Below are positions 12,594 through 25,614 of a DNA stretch of 64,000 bases, one piece after another. Within the stretch, counting starts at the first letter, position 1. Each line of letters begins with the position of its first letter. Source of the stretch: a virus (taxonomy: Duplodnaviria > Heunggongvirae > Uroviricota > Caudoviricetes); the IMG/VR virus record IMGVR_UViG_3300045988_007243; one strand, 5' to 3'. The position numbers and the translations under genes were made by a program. A model generated the notes under the pieces. It made no database searches and was not told the DNA's origin. It saw only the letters and a list, made by a program, of their open reading frames with translations.

Positions 12594-14210
12594 TCAACGT
12601 CTAAGCCCCTCATATGGGTTTCCTCTCACTAAGTCTGTGTGAGCACCCATTGATGGTGGCTTGAATAATTTAACTTCGTTAAGACTGTTGAAAGCATCAC
12701 TGGTAGCATCCACTTGGTCATCTTTAGTTTTGCCATCACCACAAAAGCCTTCAAGCTCTTGAAAGTAAGCTTCATTCCAACTACCTCTCAAGACTTTTAC
12801 AAGTCCAGCTTCAGAAGCAGCAGAAAATCCCGCAAAGCGGGTAACTTTATCTTTATTTGTTGGTTTAGCTCTTGCTCGATAGCCTTTCTCGGCAAGTTTC
12901 CTGATGAGGGATGTTGCGTAGGATTTACCAGCAGCGCCTGGGTCTTGAGGGATAAAAATACCAGTTCGCTTACCGTCACTTTCAGCAGTCAAATTAATTT
13001 GTGTTTCGACTCCAGAGGGTCTATCTCTAAATCTTACTACATCAATGATATAATAGCAACCGTCTTTTTTAGATTTACCCATCTTAACACCTGCTGTCCA
13101 GTCTGGATTAGGGTTAACCTCAGATGGTAAAGTTGCTGCTAAGTCCCATGCTCTAACATCAAATACATCTTCTGGGAGTGAATCAACAATTTCACACCAT
13201 TGTCTTTGCCAATAGTTTGAACCTTCTGCACGAGCCTTCCAGTTACCGAAACGAAGTCTTGCAACGTTTACAGAAGTGTTGTTTTCAAGCTTACCGCGAT
13301 ACTTTGGTTCTAAGAAGTCAAGAATTGGGTTATCATCAATCGTACCAGAGATGAAGGTGTATGTTTGAGGAATCTCAAGAGGGAACATTTCAAGAATCTT
13401 GTCTCTCTCCCAATCAGAAACCATCACACCATCGTTCATTACATACCAACGAATACGACCACACTTTTCAGGGTCTGGATAACCTTCTTCATCTAAGAAT
13501 GGTTCTACCCAATCATAAATAAAATGGTCTCTGTCTGGGTTCATGGAAATCTTCATGTATGAATCACCTTCAGCACCAGAACGTAGACGGGTTTGTAGGT
13601 ATGAAATCTGTGAAGCAGAGAAGTGTGTACCTTCGTCAAAGTAAATAGCTGAGTATTCAATACCCTGATGACCTTCAGCGTGCTTTTCAAGTTCTAAGTA
13701 GGTGAACTTAATAGTTGCCCCAGAAGGGAATGTGATAGTCATCTTCTGCTCGTGAGGAACCCCACCAAACTTACCAAATAGTTTCTTTGCAGCAGGCCAC
13801 AAACCACCTTGTAACTGTGTTGTATTTCGACGGAAATATACAGCATTATAGTTAGGGTCTTCAATAAACCTTAAAGAGTCCATTAACAATGCGGCAGTTT
13901 TACCAGCACCAGCAGCACCACCATAGAGAACCAAGTCAGCATTAGTATTTAAAAAGACCTCTTGAGAACCCGGTTGAGGGGCTACATAGTTCTTATCAGT
14001 CATCAATTTAAAGATAAGGCGAACTTGGTCTGGTGTGTATCTTAATAAAGTCAGAATTTGAGTTGGAAGGAATTTAGAGGGGTCTTTACCGAATGATTTG
14101 ATAATTTCTTTTACTTCATCAGAAAGCCCCAACTCTCCAGCTAGGACTTTCCTAACATCTTCCACTCGCTTCTGCTTAACAGCATTTAAGTCCATTAAGC
14201 GCCTCCGCAA
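12594..14210 (-). CDS. terminase large subunit
   Basis: 538 aa; Walker A (LYGGAAGAGKT) and Walker B (AIYFDEG) motifs, C-terminal nuclease-like region. Confidence 0.85.
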   Translation of the reverse strand: MRRRLMDLNAVKQKRVEDVRKVLAGELGLSDEVKEIIKSFGKDPSKFLPTQILTLLRYTPDQVRLIFKLMTDKNYVAPQPGSQEVFLNTNADLVLYGGAAGAGKTAALLMDSLRFIEDPNYNAVYFRRNTTQLQGGLWPAAKKLFGKFGGVPHEQKMTITFPSGATIKFTYLELEKHAEGHQGIEYSAIYFDEGTHFSASQISYLQTRLRSGAEGDSYMKISMNPDRDHFIYDWVEPFLDEEGYPDPEKCGRIRWYVMNDGVMVSDWERDKILEMFPLEIPQTYTFISGTIDDNPILDFLEPKYRGKLENNTSVNVARLRFGNWKARAEGSNYWQRQWCEIVDSLPEDVFDVRAWDLAATLPSEVNPNPDWTAGVKMGKSKKDGCYYIIDVVRFRDRPSGVETQINLTAESDGKRTGIFIPQDPGAAGKSYATSLIRKLAEKGYRARAKPTNKDKVTRFAGFSAASEAGLVKVLRGSWNEAYFQELEGFCGDGKTKDDQVDATSDAFNSLNEVKLFKPPSMGAHTDLVRGNPYEGLRR

Positions 14211-14216
14211 ATAGAA

Positions 14217-14417
14217 TTATTCAGAGTCTGTAGCAGTCTCTTCTTTCTTAACTTCGAACTTTGCATCAACAGCATCAAGAAGTGCATCCATAGATGCTTC
14301 TTTAATATCAATACCTGTTGCTACAGATAATCTATCTGCAATTGCCATGATAGTATTCTGCATAAACTCTAACTTCTTGTTAGCTTCATAAAGTTCTTTA
14401 TAAACGTTCTCGCTCAT
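14217..14417 (-). CDS. small protein upstream of terminase (possible small terminase subunit or hypothetical)
   Basis: 66 aa ORF with GGAGAAAAC RBS before ATG, directly upstream of large terminase. Confidence 0.3.
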   Translation of the reverse strand: MSENVYKELYEANKKLEFMQNTIMAIADRLSVATGIDIKEASMDALLDAVDAKFEVKKEETATDSE

Positions 14418-14452
14418 TATGTTTTCTCCAAATAATTAATCTTGTTTCCCCT

Positions 14453-14480
14453 TAAAAAAGACGGCACAGAGACCGTCAAG
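14453..14480 (-). terminator. intrinsic terminator separating tRNA array from late operon
   Basis: Minus-strand RNA: GACGGTCTCTGTGCCGTC hairpin followed by TTTTTTAAGGGG. Confidence 0.5.
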
Positions 14481-14638
14481 GAGAAACCACAATGTACGTC
14501 AGAGACATACTGTATAAGTCTTCCTATAAAGTATAACTCTGTAAAAAAGCCCTGTCTAAAAATACTCTTCGGTAGCGAAAGGAAGAATACTTATAGCAGG
14601 GCATTATTATTATTTTAATTGAGAGAGAGTAAAATAAC

Positions 14639-14714
14639 TTGGAGAATCCGAAGGGACTCGAACCCTTATAAACCTGTTTTGCAGACAGGCACATAGCCAT
14701 TTCTGTCACGGATT
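14639..14714 (-). tRNA. tRNA-Cys (GCA)
   Basis: Hand-folded cloverleaf: CCA encoded, 7-bp acceptor, T-loop ACTCGAA(rc), anticodon loop gives GCA. Confidence 0.7.
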
Positions 14715-14718
14715 CAAA

Positions 14719-14811
14719 TTGGAGGAAGATACCAGACTTGAACTGGTACACCGATTTCTCAGCTACTGGCAGTTTAGCAAACTGCTCCCTTACCTTTTAG
14801 GGTTAATCTTC
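14719..14811 (-). tRNA. tRNA-Ser (GCU), long variable arm
   Basis: Perfect acceptor pairing (ggaagat/atcttcc), canonical T-arm, 21-nt variable arm, anticodon loop gives GCU. Confidence 0.7.
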
Positions 14812-14813
14812 CA

Positions 14814-15548
14814 TTATTTCTGTAATGCGTTCTTCATTTCTGGTGTTGCAATAGCATCAATTACACCAGTTTTACAAGCATCATCAAACCAGTCTGGTAA
14901 GATACCTGCTAAGAACCCATTGATATTCGTTTTAAGGTACTCTGCAATAAGGGCAGCTTCTTCTTCAATCATCTGCACAACTTCATCTGCATAAGCTGTA
15001 ATCTTCGAGATACCTTCATTAATCTTACTAACAGCTTGGTTAGCTAAATCAGAAATAGTATCAAGACCTTTGTCAATAGCGTCTTGTAAATCACTTAATA
15101 CATCATTAACACCGTCTAGTGCACTGTTAATCGTATCAATAGCTTTTTGACCATACTCTGTAGCAACACCCATAATACCACTAAATGGTGTACAGCCAAC
15201 TTGTTCACCTGCTGCACCCATAACATTAGAATAACCTTTTGCTACCTGCATACGTGATGAAAACTCATCAATGGACTTTTGACCGTAATCTGTCAGTGTT
15301 TTGGTAGTTGATGTAGTGCTTGTCAGACTCGTGGTAAAGCTGTTAAGCAGAACTGTTGTAAGTCCAGCAGCAACAAGCTTATCTTTTACTGTAGGGTCTG
15401 ATACAGAACTAATAGAGCTTACAAGTGATGTAGAGGCAGCTACGGTTCCACCGAGAACTGCTGCACCAGTAATAAGGGGGTTAGAAAACCCTTTACCAGT
15501 TTTTAAGAGATTAAAAATCTCCTTACCTTGTTCTGTCATCTCTTTCAT
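14814..15548 (-). CDS. hypothetical protein embedded in tRNA array
   Basis: ORF-track start at 15611 overlaps a tRNA; start moved to internal ATG (MKEMTEQ...) with AAAGG RBS. Confidence 0.4.
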   Translation of the reverse strand: MKEMTEQGKEIFNLLKTGKGFSNPLITGAAVLGGTVAASTSLVSSISSVSDPTVKDKLVAAGLTTVLLNSFTTSLTSTTSTTKTLTDYGQKSIDEFSSRMQVAKGYSNVMGAAGEQVGCTPFSGIMGVATEYGQKAIDTINSALDGVNDVLSDLQDAIDKGLDTISDLANQAVSKINEGISKITAYADEVVQMIEEEAALIAEYLKTNINGFLAGILPDWFDDACKTGVIDAIATPEMKNALQK

Positions 15549-15566
15549 TAAGCACCTTTGAAATTG

Positions 15567-15641
15567 GTAGTCCAGTGGGATTTGAACCCTCTTCTCATGT
15601 TTTTCAGACACGCGCTTTAACCATATAAGCTACTTGGACTA
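15567..15641 (-). tRNA. tRNA-Phe (GAA), tentative
   Basis: Acceptor tagtcca/tggacta pairs perfectly, T-loop ATTTGAA(rc), anticodon loop gives GAA; T-stem and D-arm imperfect. Confidence 0.45.
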
Positions 15642-15646
15642 TAAAT

Positions 15647-15722
15647 TGGGGTGACCTACGGGATTTGAACCCGTATAGACCATGTTCACAGCATGGGTCA
15701 TTACCATTTATGATAAGGCCAC
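15647..15722 (-). tRNA. tRNA-His (GUG)
   Basis: Perfect T-stem and anticodon stem, loop gives GUG, discriminator C73 as expected for His. Confidence 0.65.
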
Positions 15723-15753
15723 ATTTAAGGACTCTCGTAAGAATCCTTAGAAG

Positions 15754-15829
15754 TGGCAGCGGCATAAGGATTTGAACCTTAATAAGACAGCTTCAGAGAC
15801 TGCTGCATTGCCAGTTATGCTATACCGCT
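15754..15829 (-). tRNA. tRNA-Gln (CUG)
   Basis: CCA encoded, canonical T-arm, anticodon stem with two G-U pairs, loop gives CUG. Confidence 0.55.
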
Positions 15830-15834
15830 AAATT

Positions 15835-15913
15835 TGGTACTCCATATCGGATTCGAACCGATACATAACACAGATTTTAAGTCTGGCCTCTCTGCCAATT
15901 GGAGTAATGGAGC
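15835..15913 (-). tRNA. tRNA with Leu anticodon UAA, short variable arm
   Basis: CCA encoded, A73, canonical T-arm, anticodon loop CUUAAAA; only 6-7 nt between T and anticodon arms. Confidence 0.5.
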
Positions 15914-15915
15914 AT

Positions 15916-15991
15916 TGGCGGGGGATGTTGGAATTGAACCAACTTCTTCGATTTCAAAGACCGAGGTTTTAACCTTGTAAACTAATCCCCT
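15916..15991 (-). tRNA. tRNA-Gln (UUG)
   Basis: CCA encoded, perfect T-stem and D-stem, anticodon loop gives UUG; position 1-72 unpaired. Confidence 0.55.
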
Positions 15992-15999
15992 TTAAATCT

Positions 16000-16557
16000 T
16001 TACTTTCTCAGTGGATGAATAAAGAATGCCAACATAACTCTTTCCCTTGAGAATGCTCTTTCTTCTGGGACAACACTTTTTAGTTTCCATCCAATATAAA
16101 TTCTCCAGTAAAATTGTTTACCAAAGATTTTAATTGATGGGATAAAAGCGAATAACCCCCAAGCATTACTGTTCCACATTAGGAGATAACCAGTCTGATT
16201 ATCTTCAGGGTCAGAACTTACGTTGATATTACCTTTCCACTTAGTAACATCTTTTACATCTCTTCCTAATACATGGTAAGAGAAGTTATAAGCTTTGTTT
16301 CTCCAGAGCCATCCGACTCTCTGCATATAGACACCAAGCTTACCAATCTTTCTAATCTTAGCCCATCGTTTGATATGACCTGCATCACCATCAATTGGGT
16401 TGTCATAAGTCTCCATCCATCTGAACCCGAAAGGCAAGTGTCCTTTCTTCTCACTGTAGAATGGAACTACAAAAGGTGCTAAGATAACTGCTAAGATTGC
16501 TGCAAATGGCTCTAACAAAGCTAAGAAAATCCATGAAGCATACTTTAAGTATCTCAT
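16000..16557 (-). CDS. membrane protein (hypothetical)
   Basis: 185 aa, hydrophobic N-terminal segment; lies between tRNA sub-clusters. Confidence 0.4.
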   Translation of the reverse strand: MRYLKYASWIFLALLEPFAAILAVILAPFVVPFYSEKKGHLPFGFRWMETYDNPIDGDAGHIKRWAKIRKIGKLGVYMQRVGWLWRNKAYNFSYHVLGRDVKDVTKWKGNINVSSDPEDNQTGYLLMWNSNAWGLFAFIPSIKIFGKQFYWRIYIGWKLKSVVPEERAFSRERVMLAFFIHPLRK

Positions 16558-16796
16558 TGTCTAATCCTCGTAAGGAGGTAAATGTTATTATTCGTTTCTA
16601 AACCTTCTGGTAAAACTGTCTCAAAAATAACACTCTTCAGATGTCTACCACCAAAACAATCACGTATAAATCTTTCTACTCTAGCGGGGTCACATAAGTA
16701 TCCCACTTTTAAGAAAATGTGGTGTTCAACACCAATGACCCTGACAAACTCAATACTCTCACAGTTTTCATGTTCAACTACTGTTAATGTTTGCAT
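16554..16796 (-). CDS. hypothetical protein
   Basis: 80 aa ORF between tRNA sub-clusters. Confidence 0.35.
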   Translation of the reverse strand: MQTLTVVEHENCESIEFVRVIGVEHHIFLKVGYLCDPARVERFIRDCFGGRHLKSVIFETVLPEGLETNNNIYLLTRIRQ

Positions 16797-16814
16797 AGTA
16801 TCACCTTTTTATCT

Positions 16815-16890
16815 GGCGCAGGATAAGGGATTCGAACCCCTATTAACAGCTTCGTAGACTGTTGCTCTTTCCATTTGAACTAATCCTGCA
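16815..16890 (-). tRNA. tRNA-Arg (ACG)
   Basis: CCA encoded, perfect acceptor pairing gcaggat/atcctgc, anticodon loop gives ACG. Confidence 0.65.
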
Positions 16891-16895
16891 AAATT

Positions 16896-16973
16896 GGTGT
16901 TCCAAGACGGATTCGAACCGTCACTAATACAAGGTTTGAGCTTGCATCCTCTGCCAATTGGGATACTGGAACA
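16896..16973 (-). tRNA. tRNA with Leu anticodon CAA, short variable arm
   Basis: CCA encoded, A73, perfect T-arm, anticodon loop CUCAAAC; scaffold paralogous to 15835-15913 and 17476-17552. Confidence 0.5.
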
Positions 16974-16974
16974 T

Positions 16975-17049
16975 GGTACTCACTAAAGGACTTGAACCTT
17001 TTTCTTCATCTTGTAAGGGTGATGTTTTACCATATAAACTAAGCGAGTA
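16975..17049 (-). tRNA. tRNA-Val (UAC)
   Basis: CCA encoded, perfect T-stem and D-stem, anticodon loop gives UAC (one stem mismatch). Confidence 0.55.
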
Positions 17050-17054
17050 TGAAA

Positions 17055-17141
17055 GAGGTCTGAAGTTGTGCCGCTAACTCAACTCCGTGGAATTTGTTAC
17101 GGTCTTCAGTTGACTCAAAGCGGTCTTTCACTTGACCTCTG
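17055..17141 (-). other. tRNA-sized structured element without canonical T-loop
   Basis: 87-nt interval in a tRNA-sized gap with perfectly paired 7-nt termini (agaggtc/gacctct) and internal ctgaag/cttcag repeat, but no GTTCRANY T-loop. Confidence 0.3.
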
Positions 17142-17145
17142 AATT

Positions 17146-17222
17146 GGTGCTGCTCACAGGACTTGAACCCGCATCTCCATCCTTACAAGGGATGTGTAAT
17201 AGCCAATTATACGAAAGCAGCA
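17146..17222 (-). tRNA. tRNA-Thr (UGU)
   Basis: CCA encoded, perfect anticodon stem catcc/ggatg, loop gives UGU. Confidence 0.6.
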
Positions 17223-17229
17223 TTAATTT

Positions 17230-17304
17230 GGAGCATCCAGAGGGAATCGAACCCTCAACCTCAGTTTGGAAGACTGTAATTTTCCCGTTTAAACTATGGA
17301 TGCA
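17230..17304 (-). tRNA. tRNA-Gly (UCC)
   Basis: Perfect acceptor gcatcca/tggatgc, perfect T-stem, U73, anticodon loop gives UCC. Confidence 0.65.
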
Positions 17305-17310
17305 CTAATT

Positions 17311-17386
17311 GGTGGAGAAGCAGGGAATTGAACCCTGTACTTAAGTTTGCAAAACTTATGTTTTAACCATGTAAACTACATCCCCA
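17311..17386 (-). tRNA. tRNA-Ala (UGC)
   Basis: Perfect T-, anticodon- and D-stems; anticodon UGC; G3-U70 wobble and A73 (Ala identity elements) present. Confidence 0.7.
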
Positions 17387-17392
17387 ATGTTT

Positions 17393-17468
17393 GGTACAGG
17401 TGGAGGGAATTGAACCCATCATCTTACTGATTAAGAGTCAGCCGCATAACCATTTTGCTACACCTGCA
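17393..17468 (-). tRNA. tRNA-Lys (CUU)
   Basis: CCA encoded, anticodon hairpin actga/tcagc with loop giving CUU; scaffold paralogous to 19090-19165. Confidence 0.55.
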
Positions 17469-17475
17469 TTAATTT

Positions 17476-17552
17476 GGTACACCTAGAGAGATTCGAACTC
17501 ACACTGAGCAGATTCTAAGTCTGCTGCCTCTACCAGTTGGGCTATAGGTGCA
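17476..17552 (-). tRNA. tRNA with Leu anticodon UAG, short variable arm
   Basis: CCA encoded, A73, perfect anticodon stem gcaga/tctgc, loop gives UAG; 5-nt variable region. Confidence 0.5.
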
Positions 17553-18005
17553 TTAAATCAAATGTCTTGAGAATTGACTGTGGCAATTTGGACACAAGAA
17601 CCGAAGATTCTCTTTTCTATCATCTAACCAGTTCTCGTTAATGTGGTCAACATCAAGAGTTAGAGGGTTATCCAACCAATACGGTAACTGACCACATTTA
17701 GAGCATTTGTATTCGACACCAGAGGCTATTAAAGCTCTTCTTAGTTGTGAAGACCTAGCTCTTTCACCAGATTCACGTAGAATTAGTATTTCTTCAGGCT
17801 TTCTTTTTGGTACAGTTTTAATCTTACCAGCCTTTTGTCCGAGGAAATGAGAAGTGTCTATTTCAAACTTCTCTATAACACGCTTTAGATGTGACTGAGA
17901 ACCACCTGCTGGTTTTCTCCCAAGCTTAATAAGTACTTCTCTGAATGATACTGAATCCTTTACTAAAGGCTCAAGAATATCTTTAGTCAAACTGCTACGT
18001 GCCAT
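17553..18005 (-). CDS. HNH homing endonuclease
   Basis: 150 aa; C-terminal HNH motif (LDVDHINENWLDDRKENLRFLCPNCH); free-standing inside tRNA array. Confidence 0.75.
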   Translation of the reverse strand: MARSSLTKDILEPLVKDSVSFREVLIKLGRKPAGGSQSHLKRVIEKFEIDTSHFLGQKAGKIKTVPKRKPEEILILRESGERARSSQLRRALIASGVEYKCSKCGQLPYWLDNPLTLDVDHINENWLDDRKENLRFLCPNCHSQFSRHLI

Positions 18006-18097
18006 GTGTCAATCTCCCATTAAACCTTTTTAGAGAACTTCTAAGAACCTAAGCAACAAGGTTCCACAACAAGCTGTAATAACCTTAGAAGCCCTCT

Positions 18098-18122
18098 AAA
18101 AAGACCTAAAAAGGTCTTTGCA
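18098..18122 (-). terminator. possible intrinsic terminator/hairpin
   Basis: AGACC-N5-GGTCT hairpin followed by a short U-tract on the minus strand. Confidence 0.3.
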
Positions 18123-18274
18123 TAGTCTTGTTTAATCTGGTGACTAGAACCTTTGGAGAGCTTGATATTATCTCTTCTCCGTGACACCTACTAGGTGCTT
18201 TATCAGTGTGTACGACAACACGAGGGATAAACCGAAAATGCGAGCAAGCATGGACGGTGTAAAATCTTATTAGG

Positions 18275-18362
18275 CGGTAAGTAAAGGAGTCGAACCCTCA
18301 CCGTATCTCTACAGTGGCAACAGTTTTCAAGACTGTTTGGCTGCCATTAGCCGCTACCTACC
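18275..18362 (-). tRNA. tRNA-Ser (UGA), long variable arm
   Basis: Perfect anticodon stem acagt/actgt, loop gives UGA, 20-nt variable arm; CCA not encoded. Confidence 0.6.
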
Positions 18363-18375
18363 CCTAATAAGACTT

Positions 18376-18458
18376 TGGCATGGGACGGAGGAGTTGAACC
18401 CCTTTGAAACGGTTTTGGAGGCCGTTGCTCATGCCTTAGAGTCTTAACATCGTCCCAT
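18376..18458 (-). tRNA. tRNA, identity unresolved (possibly Trp CCA)
   Basis: CCA encoded, perfect acceptor atgggac/gtcccat, canonical T-loop; internal fold ambiguous, about 7 nt longer than class I. Confidence 0.4.
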
Positions 18459-18601
18459 ACTATAATTCGAAGCTCACCGTATTATCTCAACACTGTAAAG
18501 CCCCTTCTCAGATTATTTACATGTTCTGGAAAACATGAGATACAGACCACCTCCCTACAGGAAGACCCGCTTAGGTCGTCTAAGTAATCTGCTAACTAAA
18601 T

Positions 18602-18683
18602 TGGTCGAGGCGGCAGGACTCGAACCCGCATACTCCACTTACTCGGTTAACGGCGGTTTAGAAGACCGCTGAGATACGCCCCG
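18602..18683 (-). tRNA. atypical tRNA-like gene (anticodon hairpin reads UCU, Arg)
   Basis: CCA encoded, acceptor and T-arm canonical, perfect 5-bp hairpin with loop UCU, but no room for a normal D-arm. Confidence 0.35.
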
Positions 18684-18931
18684 TAATTATCTTTAAAGAC
18701 TCTCTTAGAAAGCCCTTAAAGATGCCCACCTTATTAATCATACCGTGGGCGAGTACGCCAAATTCTTTGATGAGGGATTGGAAGACCTCACTGGTGTTTA
18801 GCCTATCAAGCTACTGCCAGAAAAACATTGTCGTTTGCATTTATTTTAAATTTGCAAAATAGACGCTACGCAACGAAAACTAAGGTTAGTATAAAGTAGT
18901 CACATCTCAATGTCAACAACTTTATTGAAAT

Positions 18932-19007
18932 TGGTACTGGTAGGTGGAATCGAACCACCGATGTTCCCTTATCAGGGGAGTGTTATAACCTTCTTAACTA
19001 TACCAGC
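18932..19007 (-). tRNA. tRNA-Ile (GAU)
   Basis: Perfect T-stem ggtgg/ccacc, perfect D-stem, anticodon loop gives GAU. Confidence 0.6.
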
Positions 19008-19008
19008 T

Positions 19009-19085
19009 TGGAGGTTCAGATGGGAATCGAACCCACATTCATAGGGCTTATGAGACCCTTGCATTACCTTATCTGCGACTGAACC
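19009..19085 (-). tRNA. tRNA-Met (CAU) (or lysidine Ile)
   Basis: Perfect acceptor ggttcag/ctgaacc, anticodon stem with GGG/CCC, loop gives CAU. Confidence 0.6.
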
Positions 19086-19089
19086 ATAT

Positions 19090-19165
19090 TGGTAGAAGTG
19101 GAGGGATTCGAACCCATCGCCTGTCAGATTAAAAGTCTGCCGCATCACCATTCTGCTACACTTCC
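19090..19165 (-). tRNA. tRNA-Lys (UUU)
   Basis: CCA encoded, anticodon loop TTAAAAG(rc) gives UUU. Confidence 0.55.
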
Positions 19166-19170
19166 ATTAA

Positions 19171-19312
19171 ATTATCTTTGTAGATAAGCTACCCAGACTT
19201 GCTTAAGGTCTGTAGCGATGTGCCTTTTTGGGTTTAAATCTAGAATTTACCCTTTCACCCTTTGTGGTCGCATACTCACAGGTAAGCTTAATAACTTATC
19301 TACAAAGATAAT
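19171..19312. repeat. 18-bp perfect inverted repeat pair flanking a 106-bp spacer
   Basis: attatctttgtagataag at 19171-19188 is the exact reverse complement of cttatctacaaagataat at 19295-19312. Confidence 0.6.
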
Positions 19313-19365
19313 TACCAGACCGTTGTTTATCATCTTAAGTGCTACCATTACACCAACTCGACATC

Positions 19366-19390
19366 TGCCGAGTGAAGGAATCGAACCTTC
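19366..19390 (-). pseudogene. tRNA 3' fragment (acceptor + T-arm only)
   Basis: gccgagt + gaagg-AATCGAA-ccttc matches a tRNA 3' half but no matching 5' half follows. Confidence 0.35.
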
Positions 19391-19424
19391 GCCTTTTCTT
19401 TACCGAGAAATAGATTGTTTAAGT

Positions 19425-19452
19425 TTTGCTGTAAACGGTCTTCTGTAAATTT
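19425..19452. repeat. 28-bp repeat tttgctgtaaacggtcttctgtaaattt, copy 1
   Basis: Identical 28-mer at 19993-20020; diverged copies at 19512-19536 and 20161-20187. Confidence 0.6.
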
Positions 19453-19619
19453 GTTGAGCCAGACCAAGTTTTAAATTTTTCAAAATTAAATTGGCTTGAA
19501 ATTTTAAGTAACTTGCTGAATTTGGTCTTCTGCTCCTTTAAAGAATACTCGTAAGAACCCTTTAAGGGAGGGGCTAAATAGCCCTCTCAAAACATCATTT
19601 TGAAATACTTATTATAAGT

Positions 19620-19696
19620 TGGCGGCTACGATGAGACTTGAACTCACATCATCTCCCGTGACAGGGGAGTATTTTCTCCAGTTAAACTACATAGCC
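19620..19696 (-). tRNA. tRNA-Asp (GUC)
   Basis: CCA encoded, perfect anticodon stem ctccc/gggag, loop gives GUC. Confidence 0.65.
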
Positions 19697-19701
19697 TTTA
19701 T

Positions 19702-19789
19702 TGGTGTGCCGTGTAGGAGTCGAACCTACCGAGTCTCAATGACAAGGGATTTACAGTCCCCACCGCTACCATCTACGGGATAACGACAC
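19702..19789 (-). tRNA. tRNA-Tyr (GUA), long variable arm
   Basis: Perfect T-stem, anticodon loop gives GUA, about 15-nt variable arm. Confidence 0.6.
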
Positions 19790-19801
19790 ATTTTAATTTA
19801 T

Positions 19802-19857
19802 ATTCAGGATAAGGACTTGCACCTTACAAATCGGTGAGCAATCGCTTCTCTCCTAAA
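19802..19857 (-). pseudogene. truncated tRNA-like element (56 nt)
   Basis: Acceptor-like ends pair, perfect T-stem taagg/cctta around a mutated T-loop ACTTGCA; too short for a tRNA. Confidence 0.3.
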
Positions 19858-19859
19858 TT

Positions 19860-19936
19860 TGGCGGTTAGTCAGGGATTCGAACCCTGTGCCATTCGCTTA
19901 ACAGGCGACCGCACATACCTTATGTGCTTCCTAACC
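19860..19936 (-). tRNA. tRNA-Asn (GUU)
   Basis: Perfect T-stem caggg/ccctg, D-stem gcac/gtgc, anticodon loop gives GUU. Confidence 0.55.
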
Positions 19937-19992
19937 ATGTTTAGTATTACCAGACCGTATCTTTCAATTTTTTCCGCTAAAAATTTCATTAA

Positions 19993-20020
19993 ATTTGCTG
20001 TAAACGGTCTTCTGTAAATT
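19993..20020. repeat. 28-bp repeat tttgctgtaaacggtcttctgtaaattt, copy 2
   Basis: Identical to 19425-19452; abuts the 3' end of the tRNA at 20020-20096. Confidence 0.6.
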
Positions 20021-20096
20021 TGGAGGCGGGTGAAGGAGTCGAACCTGCCGATACCATGCTAATGAGACATGTGAGACGCCCTTTCTCTATACCCGC
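20020..20096 (-). tRNA. tRNA-Met/Ile2 (CAU), second CAU species
   Basis: CCA encoded, anticodon stem catgc/acatg, loop gives CAU; position 1-72 unpaired. Confidence 0.5.
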
Positions 20097-20188
20097 AATT
20101 CTTAATGACCAGACCAAATCTCTTCTTTGTCCGATTTACCTTCAGATGAATAAGATTAAGTTTGCTGTAATTGGTCTTCTGTCAAAAC

Positions 20189-20266
20189 TGGCGTTCCAGA
20201 AGGGATTTGAACCCTCAAATATCCACTTTGAAAGAGTGGTGACTATACCATTTTGTCTACTGGAAC
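20189..20266 (-). tRNA. tRNA-Glu (UUC)
   Basis: Perfect acceptor gttccag/ctggaac, perfect anticodon stem ccact/agtgg, loop gives UUC. Confidence 0.65.
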
Positions 20267-20273
20267 ATTAATT

Positions 20274-20350
20274 TGGTCTCTGTTGGAGGACTTGAACCTC
20301 CGGCCTTACCGCCCCAAACGGAACGCTCTACCAAGCTGAGCTAAACAGAG
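20274..20350 (-). tRNA. tRNA-Pro (UGG)
   Basis: Perfect acceptor ctctgtt/aacagag, perfect T- and D-stems, anticodon loop gives UGG. Confidence 0.6.
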
Positions 20351-20467
20351 ATAAACTTTTCAAACTCTATGTAACCACTTTAACATTATTTTTTAGTGAT
20401 TGTCAAGAACTTTTTAAAATATTTTTCAGTATCTTAGAAAAGCTCTCATTTCGTTTCTATGTAGAAC

Positions 20468-20496
20468 ATATTAAAGGGTATTAAACACATTGTCAA
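20468..20496 (-). promoter_or_regulatory. sigma70-like promoter driving the tRNA array
   Basis: Minus strand reads TTGACA-17 bp-TAATAT about 120 bp upstream of the first tRNA. Confidence 0.55.
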
Positions 20497-20514
20497 TACC
20501 CTTTTTAAAACTTT

Positions 20515-21930
20515 TTACCAGATATAACGGTCAATCATTACTGCTTTGAGCATTACGCTGATTGGGTCAAACTTCTCACCACCAAGCAGAGCTTTTAAAG
20601 TGGCTGGAGAGAAACCAGATACCATTGCTACACCGTTATCCTTAACAGACACTTCGCAAGTACCATTACGGTTTGCTAAGTACCAGAATACCAGTTGTGG
20701 CATTTCGTATCCAGCTTTTTTGTACTTACTCTGAATTGCTTCAAAGTTTGTACGACCGTTAGCTCCATCAACCTGATTGAACTCCATATCGGAGAAGATG
20801 ATAAGCTTACTTGGCATATCTTTCTGAGTCAAGTTGTTTCTTTTACCTGTCTCAAGAATACGGTCAAAAGCAGCTTGTAAGTTAGTTGAGCCATATTCAA
20901 CGTGTCGCATCACCTGACGATGACGGTTTCGTAAATCACCACTCAGTTCGATGAAGTGAGGGTTTGTTGAATAAACCATCAACTCATTCTTAAAGCAACC
21001 TGTATTGCGTTCTGCTACATACAAGGCAAGTGATACACCAATATCCAGAGCAGTAATGGAGCCAAAATTCACCCAATACATTGAACTTGACACATCAGAC
21101 ATACATAGAATGTTTTCACCCTCTGCCATCCAGTTTGGTAGTGCTTTCCACTGCTCATTAGCAACATCTGCATTACCATACTTAACAGATTTAATCACAT
21201 CGTATGGGTAAACAGCACCAGCATTAATCTTAGTCTCACCCTTTGATAAGGACTCGATGTAAGCTTTGTAGCGTTCTCCATCTTTGCGGTTAAACAGTTT
21301 TTGGTAACGTGCAGCAGCAAGTGAAGGAATCTTACTGTAGTCAATCTTACCAAACTCATTAGCAGAGATTTTTTGCTCGACTGTATCAGATAGTGCAGAC
21401 AACAGTGTGCGGTACTCTTTCTCACTCAAGTTGGCAAACTTGCAGAAACGTTTTACAAACTGCTTATGACGTGGTTTGACTCGTGGTAACCACTTAGCTG
21501 CCAAACCTGCTGTTGCAGGGTCTAGTAATGCTGCTTCTAAATGTTTGAAGGCATCTGTCTCGAAACGAGTACCTACGAAGATTTTGAAGTCATCAAAACG
21601 ACCAAGTTCTGCAATCTTATCCATAATGCGAAGAACCTGTGTAGGCTCTAAAACTTTATCTTCAATCGCTTGAAGCAAAACAGTTCTGAAGGCTTTACGC
21701 TCACCCATACCTTCTCGTACATCTCGCATATGCAGTAAAATACGAACTGCAACATCAACATCCTCACGCAAAGCTTTGTAGAACAGGTCTGGTAAGATTT
21801 CTACATTGCTACGGCTTGAACCAGCAGCTTTGTAAAAGTCTACAAGAGCAGACATTGATGAAGTATGGTTTACAGCACCATTTTCAGTTCGACCTGCATG
21901 AAGGTGCGCATGTTTAAATAATTCGCTCAT
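20515..21930 (-). CDS. vWA (MIDAS) domain protein, possibly Ro/TROVE-like
   Basis: 471 aa; DxSxS MIDAS motif (MSDVSSSM) within a vWA-like fold; about 280 aa N-terminal domain of unknown type. Confidence 0.5.
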   Translation of the reverse strand: MSELFKHAHLHAGRTENGAVNHTSSMSALVDFYKAAGSSRSNVEILPDLFYKALREDVDVAVRILLHMRDVREGMGERKAFRTVLLQAIEDKVLEPTQVLRIMDKIAELGRFDDFKIFVGTRFETDAFKHLEAALLDPATAGLAAKWLPRVKPRHKQFVKRFCKFANLSEKEYRTLLSALSDTVEQKISANEFGKIDYSKIPSLAAARYQKLFNRKDGERYKAYIESLSKGETKINAGAVYPYDVIKSVKYGNADVANEQWKALPNWMAEGENILCMSDVSSSMYWVNFGSITALDIGVSLALYVAERNTGCFKNELMVYSTNPHFIELSGDLRNRHRQVMRHVEYGSTNLQAAFDRILETGKRNNLTQKDMPSKLIIFSDMEFNQVDGANGRTNFEAIQSKYKKAGYEMPQLVFWYLANRNGTCEVSVKDNGVAMVSGFSPATLKALLGGEKFDPISVMLKAVMIDRYIW

Positions 21931-22012
21931 ATTTTTCTCTCTTCTCTCATTTTGTTTGTTGATGTGACAGACTTTAGAGTAACTTTATAGAGTCTGTCAA
22001 CATCTTTTAAAA

Positions 22013-22384
22013 TTATTTTTTGAGGGTTGCAACAGCAGAGAACGTTGGTTTGTTATCTGTCTGAGACTGACCACCGTTATCAGGAGTCTTCTTAGTGTCT
22101 GCTGCAATGGCTTTCATCTCACCTGCTGAGTGAGTCATGATAGTTTTACCGACCTCAATCATACTCTTGATGGTTACATCGTCTGTGTTTAACCCGAACT
22201 CTGCAAGCTTAGCAGCGTCCCTTGTAACAATCGCCTCAAACAACTTTGCAGCAAACTCAGCAGAATTATCAATGGTCAGTTGAGCTTTTACAAGTGAGCT
22301 TTTGTTACGAGAGCCTTTTGGTCTTCCAGATGGGTTTCCAGATTGGCCTTTTTTAAACTGGCCTTTGTTTGTTCTGTTTTTCAT
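22013..22384 (-). CDS. hypothetical protein (GNPxGRPKG motif)
   Basis: 123 aa, basic N-terminus with GQSGNPSGRPKGS motif. Confidence 0.4.
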   Translation of the reverse strand: MKNRTNKGQFKKGQSGNPSGRPKGSRNKSSLVKAQLTIDNSAEFAAKLFEAIVTRDAAKLAEFGLNTDDVTIKSMIEVGKTIMTHSAGEMKAIAADTKKTPDNGGQSQTDNKPTFSAVATLKK

Positions 22385-22633
22385 TGGTATGCCTCTTATA
22401 AGACCTCTTAAAAGGCTTTTAAGATAAAAGATAGATATCCAGAAAGATATCTGTTTAAATAGCCTTTTTAGAGGAACCTTTTAAGTTATCTTCTAAGTAT
22501 TTATAAGCCTACACCTTGTCAAGTACTTTGTCAACAACTTTTTTAACTTGCAATAGTTCTTGACTTGTTGTATGGATTACTGTACCATCTTACTTAAAGC
22601 TGTAGGTCTGCCTTGTTCTACAAAGGAGACTTA

Positions 22634-22795
22634 ATGAGAAAATCAAATAAACCGAAGAAAGGTAAGAATACCAATCACTGTAAGGAATCAAAAAGGGTAG
22701 AGTTAATCTACTATTCATCCTCTGAAATTGGTCTGTACCTGTTCTTTCAAAATTACAGAAGACAAGAGGATTATCTATGTGTAGTTCCCAATTAG
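22634..22795 (+). CDS. small hypothetical protein
   Basis: Start moved to internal ATG preceded by AAAGGAGA RBS; basic 53 aa product. Confidence 0.3.
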   Translation: MRKSNKPKKGKNTNHCKESKRVELIYYSSSEIGLYLFFQNYRRQEDYLCVVPN

Positions 22796-23010
22796 AAATC
22801 GCAGATATTATAGATTTATATCAAACTGCAAAGAGTCATGGCTATATAACCTCAATTGGAAAGAATAGTCACTATGATGCTTTGACTGGAATGTATTTCA
22901 GGGCAATGGCTCAATCTAGTGAACAACACTTAATGGTTTCTTCCAGTGAGTTTACTTCGTTTCTCTATTGCAGCAAAATTATAAATCGCAGGAGAACTGA
23001 AAAATGTTAA
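22777..23010 (+). CDS. hypothetical protein
   Basis: 77 aa ORF, first of plus-strand block. Confidence 0.3.
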   Translation: MCSSQLEIADIIDLYQTAKSHGYITSIGKNSHYDALTGMYFRAMAQSSEQHLMVSSSEFTSFLYCSKIINRRRTEKC

Positions 23011-23594
23011 CAGTAAGTTTTAATTACAATAGTGATGGCTCTGTATCAATTAATTCACCATATGCAAATGACCTACTTAAAGAGCTAGTCAATCAGTGTG
23101 ATAGAGGTCTTCACTATGTTCAAAATTCTTTTAAACAGAAGACTATTGCTAATAACTTGATGCGTGTGACGGTTACAACATCAAATCCAAACTATGACAT
23201 TGATAGTGAGAGTCCTTACTCTTTAGTGGCTCTTGGAGAATGCAGTCAATTCAAACTTGTATGCCACGACTCAGAAACATTTCTTAAGGTATTTTCAAAC
23301 CTTATTCATAATAATAAGTATGGGTATGTTGATGGGAGTGTTAACTTCTATCCAGCGAACTATACCTGTCTGTTGATTGATAATATGAGAAGTAGCAAGC
23401 AAGAGCCTACAGAGATTTCATTTGATGTGAACTCTAGTCCAGACGCAGAAACAAGTAATAACTTTGATATGAGTTACGCACTATCACTTAGTAAGAAATC
23501 CGAGTTCATTGATTATGTCAATGGATTTGGTTTTAAGTTTGACGAGAGCATGAATCTCAAAAAACTTAAGAACCTACTTAAGACCAAAGCTTAA
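23004..23594 (+). CDS. hypothetical protein
   Basis: 196 aa ORF; hairpin with T-rich tail follows. Confidence 0.4.
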   Translation: MLTVSFNYNSDGSVSINSPYANDLLKELVNQCDRGLHYVQNSFKQKTIANNLMRVTVTTSNPNYDIDSESPYSLVALGECSQFKLVCHDSETFLKVFSNLIHNNKYGYVDGSVNFYPANYTCLLIDNMRSSKQEPTEISFDVNSSPDAETSNNFDMSYALSLSKKSEFIDYVNGFGFKFDESMNLKKLKNLLKTKA

Positions 23595-25607: not shown

Positions 25608-25614
25608 TATCTTC

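Follow-up and report, generated by a model that had tools for sequence, protein, structure and literature searches.

The tRNA island of a Felixounavirus, with non-canonical tRNA genes, Y-RNA-like elements and an RNA resembling the coding body of tmRNA

The tRNA genes of phages T4 and T5 stand in tandem clusters with short spacers, interspersed with small ORFs, homing endonucleases and stable RNAs whose function is unknown. T4 encodes Arg-UCU, Gln-UUG, Gly-UCC, Ile-CAU, Leu-UAA, Pro-UGG, Ser-UGA and Thr-UGU. Outside phages, some mitochondrial tRNAs lack a D-arm. The tRNA clusters of the Ounavirinae Felix O1, wV8 and phiEa21-4 have been in print since 2009-2010, with published counts of 22 tRNAs for Felix O1 and 23 for wV8 and a codon rationale included. 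For Felix O1 the codon-bias argument was already made, an Arg[AGA] tRNA 'might have been expected', and two pseudo-tRNAs were listed (PMC3185647). The YrlA type of Y RNA has been described as an outer stem followed by a T-arm, a closed acceptor-like stem and a D-arm (PMC4201824). Phage pairs of Ro60 and Y RNA are reported from mycobacteriophages, CcrColossus, Bacillus phage G and Thermus phage phiLo, not from Felix-like phages. Mycobacteriophage DS6A has a form of tmRNA that consists of the tRNA-like domain (TLD) only (PMC4131195).

The window analyzed here is a stretch of 64,000 nucleotides, and all features given below lie on its minus strand. Sequence comparison identifies the region as the tRNA island of a Felixounavirus, an E. 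coli myovirus of Felix O1/wV8 type with a strictly lytic life style. The felixounaviruses wV8 and SP22 share 96-97% nucleotide identity with the window, and their records annotate 23 and 25 tRNAs at positions matching its array. The array and its codon-usage rationale are already known from the 2009-2010 literature and are not new.

ARAGORN called 25 tRNA genes between 14640 and 20350, accepting the candidates of the first-pass annotation rather than rejecting most of them; the span and all 25 isotypes and anticodons listed there agree exactly. Rfam matched 24 of the 25, with 22 scoring 44-63 bits against RF00005 (gathering score 29 bits) and Ser-TGA and Tyr recovered through the related tRNA-Sec model. 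Canonical genes found by both programs are, in order of transcription, Pro-TGG (20274-20350), Glu-TTC (20189-20266), Asn-GTT (19860-19936), Tyr-GTA with a long variable arm (19702-19789), Asp-GTC (19620-19696), Lys-TTT (19090-19165), a first CAU gene with G1-C72 and U73 for Met or Ile2 (19009-19085), Ile-GAT (18932-19007) and Ser-TGA with a long variable arm (18273-18362). These are followed by Lys-CTT (17392-17467), Ala-TGC, with the G3-U70 pair correctly noted earlier (17310-17385), Gly-TCC (17229-17303), Thr-TGT (17145-17221), Val-TAC (16974-17048), Arg-ACG (16814-16889), Gln-TTG (15916-15991), Gln-CTG (15754-15829), His-GTG (15647-15722), Phe-GAA with a weak T-stem (15565-15640; Rfam 45 bits), Ser-GCT with a long variable arm (14720-14812) and Cys-GCA, the last gene of the array (14640-14715). 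The CCA end is encoded by 24 of the 25, as had been stated for most of them; Ser-TGA ends in CCT. The earlier estimate of about 27 tRNAs is reached once two non-canonical genes, Arg(UCU) and Trp(CCA), which that annotation did not name, are added to the ARAGORN set, and the 27 cover all 20 amino acids.

The Arg(UCU)-like gene (18602-18683) has no ARAGORN call and was found by Rfam at 18605-18683 with 31.7 bits. Its acceptor stem, anticodon arm (loop CUUCUAA), T-arm and CCA are all normal; in place of the D-arm it has UAUCUCA and a 22-nt segment after the anticodon arm. Across 35 viral contigs, 19 to 360 kb in length, the gene occurs in 24 distinct versions; compensatory changes preserve pairing in the acceptor, anticodon and T stems, and the CUUCUAA loop never varies. 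In other felixounaviruses a canonical tRNA-Arg(UCU) occupies the same slot, and the canonical and D-armless forms are nearly mutually exclusive (34 versus 40 loci, one with both). The Trp(CCA)-like gene (18376-18458), also without an ARAGORN call, has A1-U72, G73, a CCA end, the loop CUCCAAA, an enlarged connector/D region and a D-stem of 3 bp. In relatives its anticodon stem changes from ACGG/CCGU to UAAG/CUUA, its D-stem from CUC/GAG to CAC/GUG and one T-stem pair from G-C to U-A, while the CUCCAAA loop is invariant.

Four of the genes called by ARAGORN are also unusual. Three tRNA-Leu genes, TAG (17475-17551, 77 nt), CAA (16895-16972, 78 nt) and TAA (15835-15913, 79 nt), all matched by Rfam as well, lack the long variable arm; they retain A73, and their D-loop, AAUUGG, is that of a canonical phage tRNA-Leu with a long arm. 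Such short forms also occur in Erwinia phage phiEa21-4. The second CAU gene (20021-20097; Met or Ile2) was called by ARAGORN and not reported by the Rfam search. It has a U1xC72 mismatch, U37 and U73, and a T-stem that is mismatched in the window yet covaries in relatives; given the lack of Rfam recognition and the T-stem mismatch, it may be impaired. The Arg-UCU, Trp-CCA and three Leu genes appear to combine non-standard shapes with retention of the elements for charging and decoding. Charging of these genes could nevertheless be poor or be carried out by an unexpected synthetase.

As the first-pass annotation had observed, an HNH gene and other ORFs interrupt the array. The HNH gene (17553-18005, 150 aa), a predicted free-standing homing endonuclease, matches PHROG 10822 (E 5e-66) and scores 21.1 bits against Pfam HNH, where the cut-off is 21.4. 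The other ORFs encode 80 aa (16554-16796, phrog_14202, function unknown), 185 aa (16000-16557, DUF7338) and 244 aa counted from an ATG (14814-15548, DUF7217). The promoter reported earlier, TTGACA-17-TAATAT, is present at 20468-20496, 118-146 nt upstream of tRNA-Pro, with 10 of 12 matches. The accompanying picture, in which a single promoter serves the whole array, is an oversimplification, as the region has at least three sigma-70-like promoters: a TTGACA-18-TAAAGT with TG lies 27 nt upstream of tRNA-Pro (20377-20406, 10/12), and the best match of the region, TTGACA-17-TATACT, is internal (18888-18916, 11/12). A long hairpin followed by UUUUUU, GCCCUGCUAUAAG...UAGACAGGGC (14543-14602), is the likely terminator of the array on its sequence, and a second terminator-like site lies at 14477-14460. 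Another long hairpin, AUCUUUAAGGGCUUU...AGAGUCUUUAAAGAU, was read at 18689-18723. Similar hairpins stand at about 15750, 18060-18130 and 19560.

Codon usage in 66 phage ORFs (15,710 codons) was set against that of 43 annotated E. coli genes (14,429 codons). The phage is enriched in codons that form Watson-Crick pairs with the anticodons of its own tRNAs (Mann-Whitney p = 0.028), a result of only modest significance that supports the codon mismatch proposed earlier. Each 4- or 6-codon family is served by a phage tRNA with U34, whose matching A-ending codon the phage uses 2-4 times as often as the host does: ACA 4.1x, CTA 3.2x, TCA 3.0x, CCA 2.6x, TTA 2.3x, GCA 2.2x, GTA 2.1x and GGA 2.0x. AAG, read by the Lys-CUU gene, is used 1.7x as often. 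The most host-mismatched codon is AGA, at 15.1 per 1000 codons in the phage versus 1.1 in the host (about 20x by fraction), and its only decoder in the window is the Arg(UCU)-like gene that ARAGORN missed. GC content is 39% in the phage versus 51% in the host. Codons of the two-codon families Asp, Glu, Phe, Tyr and His are used as in the host (ratios 0.85-1.15), and codon bias accounts for only a part of the tRNA set that does not include these five.

The gene content, the conserved and covarying structures, the codon statistics, the promoter matches and the Ro60 fold described below make it very probable that the island is a Felixounavirus tRNA set topping up the decoding of phage-preferred codons, accompanied by tRNA-related non-coding RNAs and the HNH gene. 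For its expression, processing, aminoacylation and translational benefit we infer the following course. Three sigma-70 promoters of host type (at 20496, 20406 and 18916) would drive transcription, and host RNase P and 3' nucleases would process the transcripts to 27 tRNAs reading codons of all 20 amino acids. Their main job would be to boost decoding of A/U-ending and rare codons, AGA above all, which would keep the host tRNA supply from limiting the mass synthesis of virion proteins late in infection.

A different purpose is possible, if on the unlikely side: the set may mainly be counter-defence, replacing host tRNAs that are cleaved or depleted in infection by anticodon nucleases, tRNA-targeting toxins or host shut-off, rather than correcting codon usage. 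Phage tRNAs can evade tRNA-targeting defences, as in T5 and other phages, and a full 20-amino-acid set, including the non-enriched Asp, Glu, Phe, Tyr and His, exceeds what codon correction needs. The alternation of two Arg(UCU) forms in one slot among close relatives is as expected of an arms-race trait, and the island is shared with Ro60/Y-RNA and tmRNA-like elements, which are tied to damaged RNA and stalled ribosomes. On this reading, the odd Arg-UCU, Trp and Leu shapes would hide these tRNAs from nucleases that recognize the normal tRNA body. However, the anticodon loop is identical in the canonical and D-armless Arg(UCU), the strongest codon mismatches coincide with phage tRNAs, and nothing in the window indicates a particular host nuclease.

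The Ro60-like gene (20515-21930, 471 aa) lies immediately upstream of the array and matches Pfam DUF2828 and DUF7788 and PHROG 850 ('RNA-binding protein'). Its product is predicted to have a Ro60 fold (pLDDT 89.5); the top 11 PDB matches of the model are all Ro60, with TM up to 0.65. Sequence comparison revealed three Y-RNA-like stem modules within the array, at 20103-20187 (a CAGAAGACC...GGUCUGG stem with no tRNA-like insert), 19944-20020 and 19453-19538. A YrlA-like RNA, for which no Rfam family matched, was read at 19309-19451 and compared with relatives. It consists of an outer stem AGACCGUU/AACGGUCU, a T-arm GAAGG-UUCGAUU-CCUUC, a closed 7-bp acceptor-like hairpin ACUCGGC-AGAU-GUCGAGU and a D-arm GUGU-AAUGGUA-GCAC. 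In relatives the T and D arms are invariant, and the acceptor-like stem is swapped for other pairing sequences. The Y-RNA-like modules probably partner the adjacent Ro60-like protein.

Between the internal promoter, which is predicted to drive it, and the 18689-18723 hairpin that separates it from the next gene lies an RNA (18724-18881) that, by comparative sequence analysis, resembles the coding body of tmRNA, the RNA of ribosome rescue. Its 5' end, UAGUUUUCGU (18882-18873), is antisense to codons 3-6 of the host ssrA tag. A resume-like context, AAAAUAAAU-GCA, leads into a frame of 10 codons with no start codon (18838-18809, ANDNVFLAVA), followed by the stops TGA and TAG at 18808-18803 within a hairpin and by two pseudoknots, both of which covary. 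The element is found in Felix-like, Ackermannviridae, lambdoid, P1-like and SSU5-like phages, where it is unannotated; no description was found in the searchable literature, and it is apparently an undescribed RNA.

We regard it as unlikely that this element is untranslated and unconnected with trans-translation, being instead a processing element, an sRNA or a leader with structure that resembles a tmRNA tag region only as a relic or by chance. Such a role would fit an RNA with no tRNA-like domain attached, with scores of 16-29 bits in the Rfam tmRNA models (gathering score 47). A model built on the phage elements scores host ssrA at 13.3 bits only. ARAGORN's single 'permuted tmRNA' call was rejected as a composite artefact, and lambdoid prophages carry the element in the late-operon leader, where structured RNAs are common. 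Against this, the frame is fixed at 10 codons in all copies, and its 15 peptide variants follow the pattern A-N-[DE]-x-x-[FYVM]-[LM]-x-[VA]-A. Differences fall mostly at codon position 3 (1075 versus 443 and 483), with a syn:nonsyn ratio of 436:871 versus 17:1203 and 195:1000 in the other frames; one copy keeps the same peptide through three synonymous changes, the first codon included, and the stop codon is always located in the hairpin. Judged by these substitutions, the tag is under coding selection without a start codon.

That the Arg-UCU-like, Trp-like, second CAU and short Leu genes are decaying pseudogenes in an array partly relic and shuffled by homing endonucleases is very improbable. 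In its support, ARAGORN rejects the first two, Rfam rejects the second CAU gene, RefSeq labels several wV8 tRNA genes pseudo or 'tRNA-OTHER', pseudo-tRNAs were listed for Felix O1, and gene content from Leu-TAG to Ile varies between close relatives, with endonuclease ORFs present or missing, but pseudogenes are not expected to maintain helices by compensatory substitution, as the Arg-like gene does in three stems across its 24 versions, the Trp-like gene in three stems and the second CAU gene in the T-stem of relatives, and the Arg-like gene alone serves AGA.

Compared with the Felix O1, wV8 and phiEa21-4 clusters, the array belongs to a phage of the same genus and has the same gene order; as in those phages, it is flanked by the terminase/portal module on one side and by the DUF5681/'RNA-binding protein' genes on the other. 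It differs in its total, 27 against the published 22-23 for Felix O1 and wV8, some of them called pseudo, and its D-armless Arg(UCU) and odd Trp fill the published gaps. Like the T4 and T5 clusters it is tandem with short spacers and interspersed with small ORFs, a homing endonuclease and odd RNAs, and the T4 anticodons are a subset of its own; in contrast, it has more tRNAs, serving all 20 amino acids, and it includes tRNA-Leu without a long arm and tRNA-Arg(UCU) without a D-arm. The latter resembles mitochondrial tRNAs that lack a conventional D-arm in that acceptor stem, anticodon arm and T-arm are all retained. Where those have a short replacement loop, however, it carries a conserved 22-nt GUUAAYCGAGUAAYUGGAGUAU (with GG) following the anticodon arm, and it comes from phages whose bacterial hosts have a normal translation machinery.

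As in bacterial and phage Ro60 (Rsr) and YrlA pairs, a protein of predicted Ro60 fold has a YrlA-order RNA at most 1.2 kb away on its own strand; the protein matches DUF2828/DUF7788 and not TROVE, and the GNCGAA motif is not conserved. With tmRNA (ssrA) the tmRNA-body-like element shares an A-rich resume context followed by GCA AAC GA, a 10-residue tag that resembles ANDENYALAA and has no start codon, and a stop codon in a hairpin followed by consecutive H-type pseudoknots. It differs from tmRNA, two-piece and permuted forms included, in that it has no acceptor stem, T-arm or CCA of its own, and therefore no alanine charging is possible. It also falls below the Rfam thresholds, and its 5' end is antisense to host tmRNA tag codons, an arrangement that is not known from any tmRNA. 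Set beside the TLD-only form of DS6A, the RNA is the mirror image, a tmRNA-like body with no TLD.

The tRNA array reported in the first-pass annotation was borne out in every particular. ARAGORN called 25 tRNA genes in the 64-kb window, on the minus strand only and between 14640 and 20350, and these are the same genes and anticodons that had been listed from hand-folded cloverleaves. The Rfam tRNA model matched 22 genes at 44 to 63 bits, and the long-arm Ser-TGA and Tyr genes were matched via the clan member tRNA-Sec, giving Rfam support for 24 of the 25 candidates accepted by ARAGORN; the second CAU gene (20021-20097) was called by ARAGORN alone of the two. With an Arg-like gene (18683-18602) and a Trp-like gene (18458-18376) added, the single minus-strand array reaches the total of 27 that had been estimated, and its coverage, described as nearly complete, extends to all 20 amino acids. 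The tRNA-Ala cloverleaf contains the G3-U70 pair, and CCA is encoded by 24 of the 25 genes, Ser-TGA ending in CCT. Region 14000-21000 aligns along more than 90% of its length with Felixounavirus genomes, including SP22, wV8 and the O157 typing phages, at 95 to 97% identity, and matched 315 phage records. The wV8 annotation lists 23 tRNAs and that of SP22 lists 25, at positions that correspond to those in the window.

A promoter scan of 14300-20700 recovered the TTGACA-17-TAATAT sequence that had been proposed as the array promoter (20496-20468, minus strand) among its top three sites, together with TTGACA-18-TAAAGT at 20406-20377 and the strongest promoter-like site, TTGACA-17-TATACT at 18916-18888 (11 of 12 matches), both also on the minus strand. 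Past tRNA-Cys, a long hairpin followed by six T's was read from the sequence at 14602-14543, and a second terminator-like site was found by scan at 14477-14460, again on the minus strand. Protein genes, one of them HNH, had been noted within the array, and four minus-strand ORFs do interrupt it. These are a DUF7217 ORF (14814-15548), a DUF7338 ORF (16000-16557), an 80-aa PHROG-14202 protein ORF (16554-16796) and an HNH endonuclease ORF (17553-18005; PHROG 10822, E 5e-66; Pfam HNH 21.1 bits, with a cut-off of 21.4). In SP22, additional endonuclease ORFs lie between the Thr and Gly genes and between the Ser and Ile genes, positions taken up in the window by a spacer of 7 nt or by other content. 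Whole endonuclease ORFs are present or absent across the array region among close relatives, as expected for homing endonucleases, and with both an HNH motif and this presence/absence polymorphism the ORF at 17553-18005 is classed as a putative free-standing HNH homing endonuclease. Farther along the window, the GC skew and AT skew switch sign at 22000-30000, which suggests a plus-strand gene block; together with the minus-strand bias elsewhere, such a block suggests a divergent transcription unit adjoining the tRNA/packaging module.

Codon usage, predicted to be mismatched to that of the host, was compared between 66 long ORFs of the window (15,710 codons) and 43 annotated E. coli chromosomal genes (14,429 codons). 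The prediction held. Codons able to form Watson-Crick pairs with the anticodons of the array are over-represented in the phage compared with the host (Mann-Whitney p = 0.028). In every four- and six-codon family, the U34 of the phage tRNA fits the A-ending codon, which the phage uses at 2 to 4 times the host level (ACA, CTA, TCA, CCA, TTA, GCA, GTA, GGA), and AAG, for which the phage carries a Lys-CUU gene, is used at 1.7 times the host level. The largest mismatch is AGA, with 15.1 per 1000 codons in the phage against 1.1 in the host, or 38% against 2% of Arg codons. These results support a mechanism in which the array would be transcribed from host-type promoters, its transcripts would be processed by the host, and its tRNAs would supplement under-supplied codons; replacement of host tRNAs lost to defence nucleases is a possible added role. 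The same codon-usage argument is already in print for Felix O1 (22 tRNAs; PMC3185647) and wV8 (23 tRNAs), and the array is thus already known. It is textbook phage biology, annotated in hundreds of Felixounavirus genomes, and offers nothing new as written. The value of the region lies in what routine annotation skips inside the same coordinates: a D-armless tRNA-Arg(UCU), an odd tRNA-Trp, tRNA-Leu genes that lack the long arm, a Ro60/Y-RNA-like pair and, above all, a tmRNA-body-like RNA.

The Arg-like gene was not called by ARAGORN and was found as an Rfam tRNA match at 18605-18683 (31.7 bits). It has a 7-bp acceptor stem, the anticodon arm GCGGU-CUUCUAA-ACCGC (anticodon UCU), a T-arm, A73 and CCA. 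The D-arm is missing: at its position the Rfam alignment leaves only 4 nt where 15 are expected. In E. coli, the main identity element for ArgRS is A20, which lies in the D-arm. An extra conserved segment of 22 nt follows the anticodon arm and may substitute for the D-arm. By pattern scan the gene was found in 35 viral contigs of 19 to 360 kb, in 24 distinct versions, and BLAST also placed it in jumbo phages (7t3, PBECO4) and rV5-like phages. Across the 24 versions there are compensatory substitutions in the acceptor, anticodon and T stems. GUAUCUCA, CUUCUAA and GAGUAAYUGGAGUAU do not vary, and most versions have A or G as the discriminator. In other felixounaviruses this slot is taken by a canonical tRNA-Arg(UCU) whose anticodon arm is nearly identical. 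Among the loci compared, the two forms are almost mutually exclusive, with 34 and 40 loci for the two and one locus that has both. We conclude that 18683-18602 probably encodes a working, structurally aberrant tRNA-Arg(UCU), and it is the only predicted decoder of AGA in this phage. The Felix O1 genome paper remarked that an Arg[AGA] tRNA 'might have been expected', yet found none (PMC3185647); the Arg-like gene answers the gap flagged there, and it prompts the question how a tRNA without a D-arm can be acceptable to ArgRS, EF-Tu and the ribosome.

The Trp-like gene (18458-18376, minus strand) departs from the standard cloverleaf, with a 10-nt connector, a D-stem of 3 bp, no ARAGORN call and a match to the Rfam tRNA-Sec model only (23 bits). 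A CCA anticodon, G73 and A1-U72 make up the identity set of E. coli TrpRS, and the gene has all three, along with an encoded CCA end and the loop CUCCAAA. In relatives, compensatory changes are seen in the anticodon stem (ACGG/CCGU to UAAG/CUUA), in the short D-stem (CUC/GAG to CAC/GUG) and in the T-stem. A different, truncated Trp gene of 71 nt with the same three identity features occurs in wV8 (5829-5899 of comparison locus L001), and the Trp gene of Erwinia phage phiEa21-4 is canonical.

The three tRNA-Leu genes (15835-15913, 16895-16972 and 17475-17551, minus strand) depart from the norm in another way. Bacterial tRNA-Leu is a class II tRNA, defined by a long variable arm; these genes are 77 to 79 nt long with variable regions of 4 to 7 nt, against 85 nt for a canonical phage tRNA-Leu (that of muut). 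The Leu genes of phiEa21-4 (5313-5390 and 5851-5927 of its locus, L112) likewise lack the long arm. The identity elements for E. coli LeuRS are A73 and a Leu-type D-loop. A73 is present in all three genes of the window, as in those of phiEa21-4, and their D-loop AAUUGG/AACUGG is also that of the muut tRNA-Leu and the phiEa21-4 Leu genes.

Both CAU genes (19009-19085 and 20021-20097, minus strand) have U73 and neither is initiator-like; they are predicted to be either Met or lysidine-modified Ile2 tRNAs. The second of them has a U1xC72 mismatch, U37 and a T-stem mismatch confined to the window, and its T-stem covaries in relatives. A further degenerate tRNA-like gene may be present in phiEa21-4, where an unannotated minus-strand stretch at about 6165-6250 of L112, just upstream of that phage's tmRNA-like element, combines the T-arm GAGAGGUUCGAAUCCUUA with the motif GAGUAAAUGG and a CCA-like end.

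Immediately upstream of the array, a minus-strand gene for a 471-aa protein (20515-21930) matched DUF2828/DUF7788 in Pfam and the PHROG 850 'RNA-binding protein' only. Pfam found no TROVE domain in the protein and it had no PDB sequence match. Its AlphaFold model (pLDDT 89.5) was used for a Foldseek search, in which the top 11 PDB matches were all Ro60, at full length, with E values of 1e-7 to 4e-5 and TM scores up to 0.65; these include Ro60 from Xenopus (TM 0.65) and human, Deinococcus Rsr and the protein of Thermus phage phiLo. The modelled structure has the HEAT-repeat ring and vWA fold of Ro60/Rsr. Within the first kilobase of the array, four spacers (20187-20103, 20020-19944, 19538-19453 and 19451-19309, minus strand) have a module in common, with a 5' arm CAGAAGACC-NN and a 3' arm NN-GGUCUGG. 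The module folds as a stem interrupted by an asymmetric internal loop, and two base pairs beside its core covary (AA/UU versus GU/AC). A fifth module, a short GACC/GGUC stem, may lie in the spacer that separates the Arg-like gene from the Trp-like gene (18460-18600, minus strand), which contains GACGACCUAAGCGGGUCUUCCUGUAGGGAGGUGGUCUG.

The outer stem of the fourth module, which is encoded near the Ro60-like gene, holds a tRNA mimic made up of a T-arm, a closed acceptor-like hairpin of 7 bp and a D-arm. T-arm, acceptor-like stem and D-arm follow in the same order in the bacterial YrlA Y RNAs (PMC4201824). In relatives the T and D arms of this module are invariant and the acceptor-like stem is swapped for unrelated pairing sequences, one of which has GCCA in its loop. 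Rfam returned no family for the module at E <= 10, and the 5'-proximal YrlA motif GNCGAA(N)G occurs once only, as a GGCGAAG that coincides in part with the T-stem and is not kept in relatives. For these reasons we call the module YrlA-like and not a member of the family. Pairs of Ro60 and Y RNA are known from other phage groups, and no report of one in Felix-like phages was found in the open-access literature; the candidate Ro60-like protein and its Y-RNA-like partners would place such a pair in a major group of therapeutic coliphages and Salmonella phages.

The tmRNA-body-like RNA (18881-18724, minus strand) begins just downstream of the strongest promoter. Two Rfam tmRNA models align this stretch to the tmRNA resume region (RF00023 at 16 bits, RF04321 at 28.6 bits), both below the Rfam gathering score of 47. 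The frame from GCA at 18838 reads GCA AAC GAC AAT GTT TTT CTG GCA GTA GCT TGA TAG, or ANDNVFLAVA followed by two stops. The stop codon lies in a hairpin, after which come two H-type pseudoknots, and the register at the resume codon matches that of the host ssrA. The resume codon context, the short tag ORF without a start codon that ends in a hairpin and the downstream pseudoknots are all features of a tmRNA.

BLAST and collection scans found the element in unrelated phages at 75 to 90% identity. Its carriers include Ackermannviridae (Klebsiella phage May), siphoviruses and prophages of about 46 kb, Erwinia phage phiEa21-4 and phage-plasmids of the SSU5-like and P1-like types. In E. coli lambdoid prophages it is flanked by the genes for the Q antiterminator and the holin, and PGAP leaves it unannotated. 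Phages with a dedicated promoter (that of the window, BUCT610 and phiEa21-4) place it 7 to 9 nt upstream of a conserved 5' motif, AGUUUUCG. A structure-anchored scan gave mostly chance matches among the matches listed.

The pattern of change among these copies argues for selection on the encoded peptide. The tag frame always has 10 codons, and its 15 peptide variants fit A-N-[DE]-x-x-[FYVM]-[LM]-x-[VA]-A. In 25 distinct tag ORFs the differences fall mainly at codon position 3 (1075, versus 443 and 483 at the other positions), and the ratio of synonymous to nonsynonymous changes is 436:871 in the tag frame versus 17:1203 and 195:1000 in the other two. One copy has an identical peptide despite three synonymous changes, including GCT as the first codon. 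In 68 of 78 distinct versions an in-frame stop lies 8 to 17 codons upstream, with no ATG, GTG or TTG before the GCA. An alternative ATG frame over the tag (MQT...WQ*) was rejected, as its residue changes are non-conservative and synonymous changes are almost absent. The structure is conserved as well. In an alignment of 36 sequences, 96.8% of the cells in the pseudoknots pair, versus at most 41% in slid controls, and double-sided changes number 67 versus 17 +/- 4 in shuffles, none of 500 shuffles reaching 67; stem 2 of PK-B was read from the sequences. Taken from comparative sequence data, this is evidence for a real, structured and translated RNA.

The lambdoid late-operon leaders and the P1 tRNA region also contain structured RNA cassettes, bracketed by the same complementary arms of 12 to 19 nt (CACAACAGGUAAGAGCAUU ... 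AGUGCUCUUUCCGUUGUGG). They were seen in the lambdoid-size viral contigs L016, L062, L007, L027, L031 and L004, in the P1-like plasmid L139 (about 2110-2215) and in a prophage of E. coli 55989 (L111), and the bracket arms covary in the P1-like copies. A recurrent cassette combines a D-arm-like hairpin (GCGA-CGUCGGAGA-UCGC) with a T-arm, lacks an anticodon arm and sits before or after the tmRNA-like element at lambdoid and P1-like loci, where it could be a tRNA-like partner of that element. Within the array, long AU-rich hairpins (UUAAGGGNUUCU...AGAGNCCUUAA) recur between genes at about 15750, 18060-18130, 18689-18723 and 19555-19590 on the minus strand; these resemble the lambdoid cassette brackets and may be processing sites.

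The part of a tmRNA that could not be found is the tRNA-like domain. There is no acceptor stem with G3-U70, T-arm or CCA end in the element, and ARAGORN called no tmRNA in the window. The adjacent Arg-like gene, with its G3-U70, A73 and CCA and no D-arm, was considered as the missing domain and rejected, because the 3-70 pair is G-U in the window and G-U, G-C, A-U or C-G among the 24 homologs, because it has a real anticodon arm whose stem covaries around an invariant Arg-UCU loop, and because a canonical tRNA-Arg(UCU) occupies the same slot in relatives. A 'permuted tmRNA' called by ARAGORN in comparison locus L060 was rejected as a two-piece tmRNA, being a composite over 749 nt of a YrlA-like T-arm, part of a tRNA-Lys and the tag, and an Rfam tmRNA_permuted match was rejected as an acceptor piece, as it borrows the T-arm of a genuine tRNA-Ile. 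A covariance model built from 23 copies of the element found a single copy in the window (114 bits). Against the host ssrA the same model scored weakly, with 13.3 bits in the correct register at the resume codon when filters were off and nothing with default filters, and on account of this weak score membership of the tmRNA family is not claimed. In its predicted design the element resembles the body of a tmRNA, but it falls outside the family.

The conserved 5' end of the element is complementary to E. coli ssrA nt 96-108, that is, tag codons 3 to 6 (GAC GAA AAC UAC). This seed matches over 9 to 12 nt in 103 of 125 distinct versions, and over 10 nt in 90 of them, the copies being related so that these counts are not independent events. 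The seed motif matches the element's own tag over 4 to 5 nt only, and with shuffled elements a match of 10 nt to any part of ssrA arose in 1.9% of trials. Lineages differ in the direction in which the ssrA match is lengthened (AGUUUUCGUC, UAGUUUUCGU, CGUAGUUUUCGU), a sign that selection may favour pairing and not one fixed sequence. Translation of the RNA appears to need no start codon, and the RNA appears to base-pair with the host tmRNA.

Mechanisms that would unite these properties are offered as ranked hypotheses only. In its weaker version, the element could be an antisense inhibitor or a decoy of the host tmRNA, a role that would explain both the seed and the pseudoknots, but that in pure form would not explain the coding signature. 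That a frame with no start codon is under coding selection points to a resume mechanism of translation, which would require entry into a stalled ribosome. The only visible way in would be by way of host tmRNA-SmpB, with the 5' seed as a possible tether for the element. We put forward tentatively, as a reading that we hold to be possible though somewhat unlikely, that a previously undescribed RNA, a tmRNA body without the tRNA-like domain, is carried by at least five unrelated types of enterobacterial phage (Felix O1-like, Ackermannviridae, lambdoid, P1-like and SSU5-like) and reprograms or hijacks trans-translation: it would dock on the host tmRNA or ride tmRNA-SmpB into stalled ribosomes, and its own frame would be translated instead of the host tag or after the latter is blocked. 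If the element is real, it would be a new viral way to interfere with bacterial ribosome rescue, and one directly testable in phages and hosts that every phage laboratory owns.

No description of such an RNA, or of its tag peptides, was found in the open-access literature. In a 2014 survey of tmRNAs, mycobacteriophages and Bacillus phage G were the only phages listed with ssrA, DS6A having a form that consists of the tRNA-like domain alone (PMC4131195). The E. coli ssrA sequence, which we retrieved, encodes the tag ANDENYALAA, whereas the phage tag reads ANDNVFLAVA, and codons 3 to 6 of the ssrA tag, the target of the seed, are the part where the phage tag differs.
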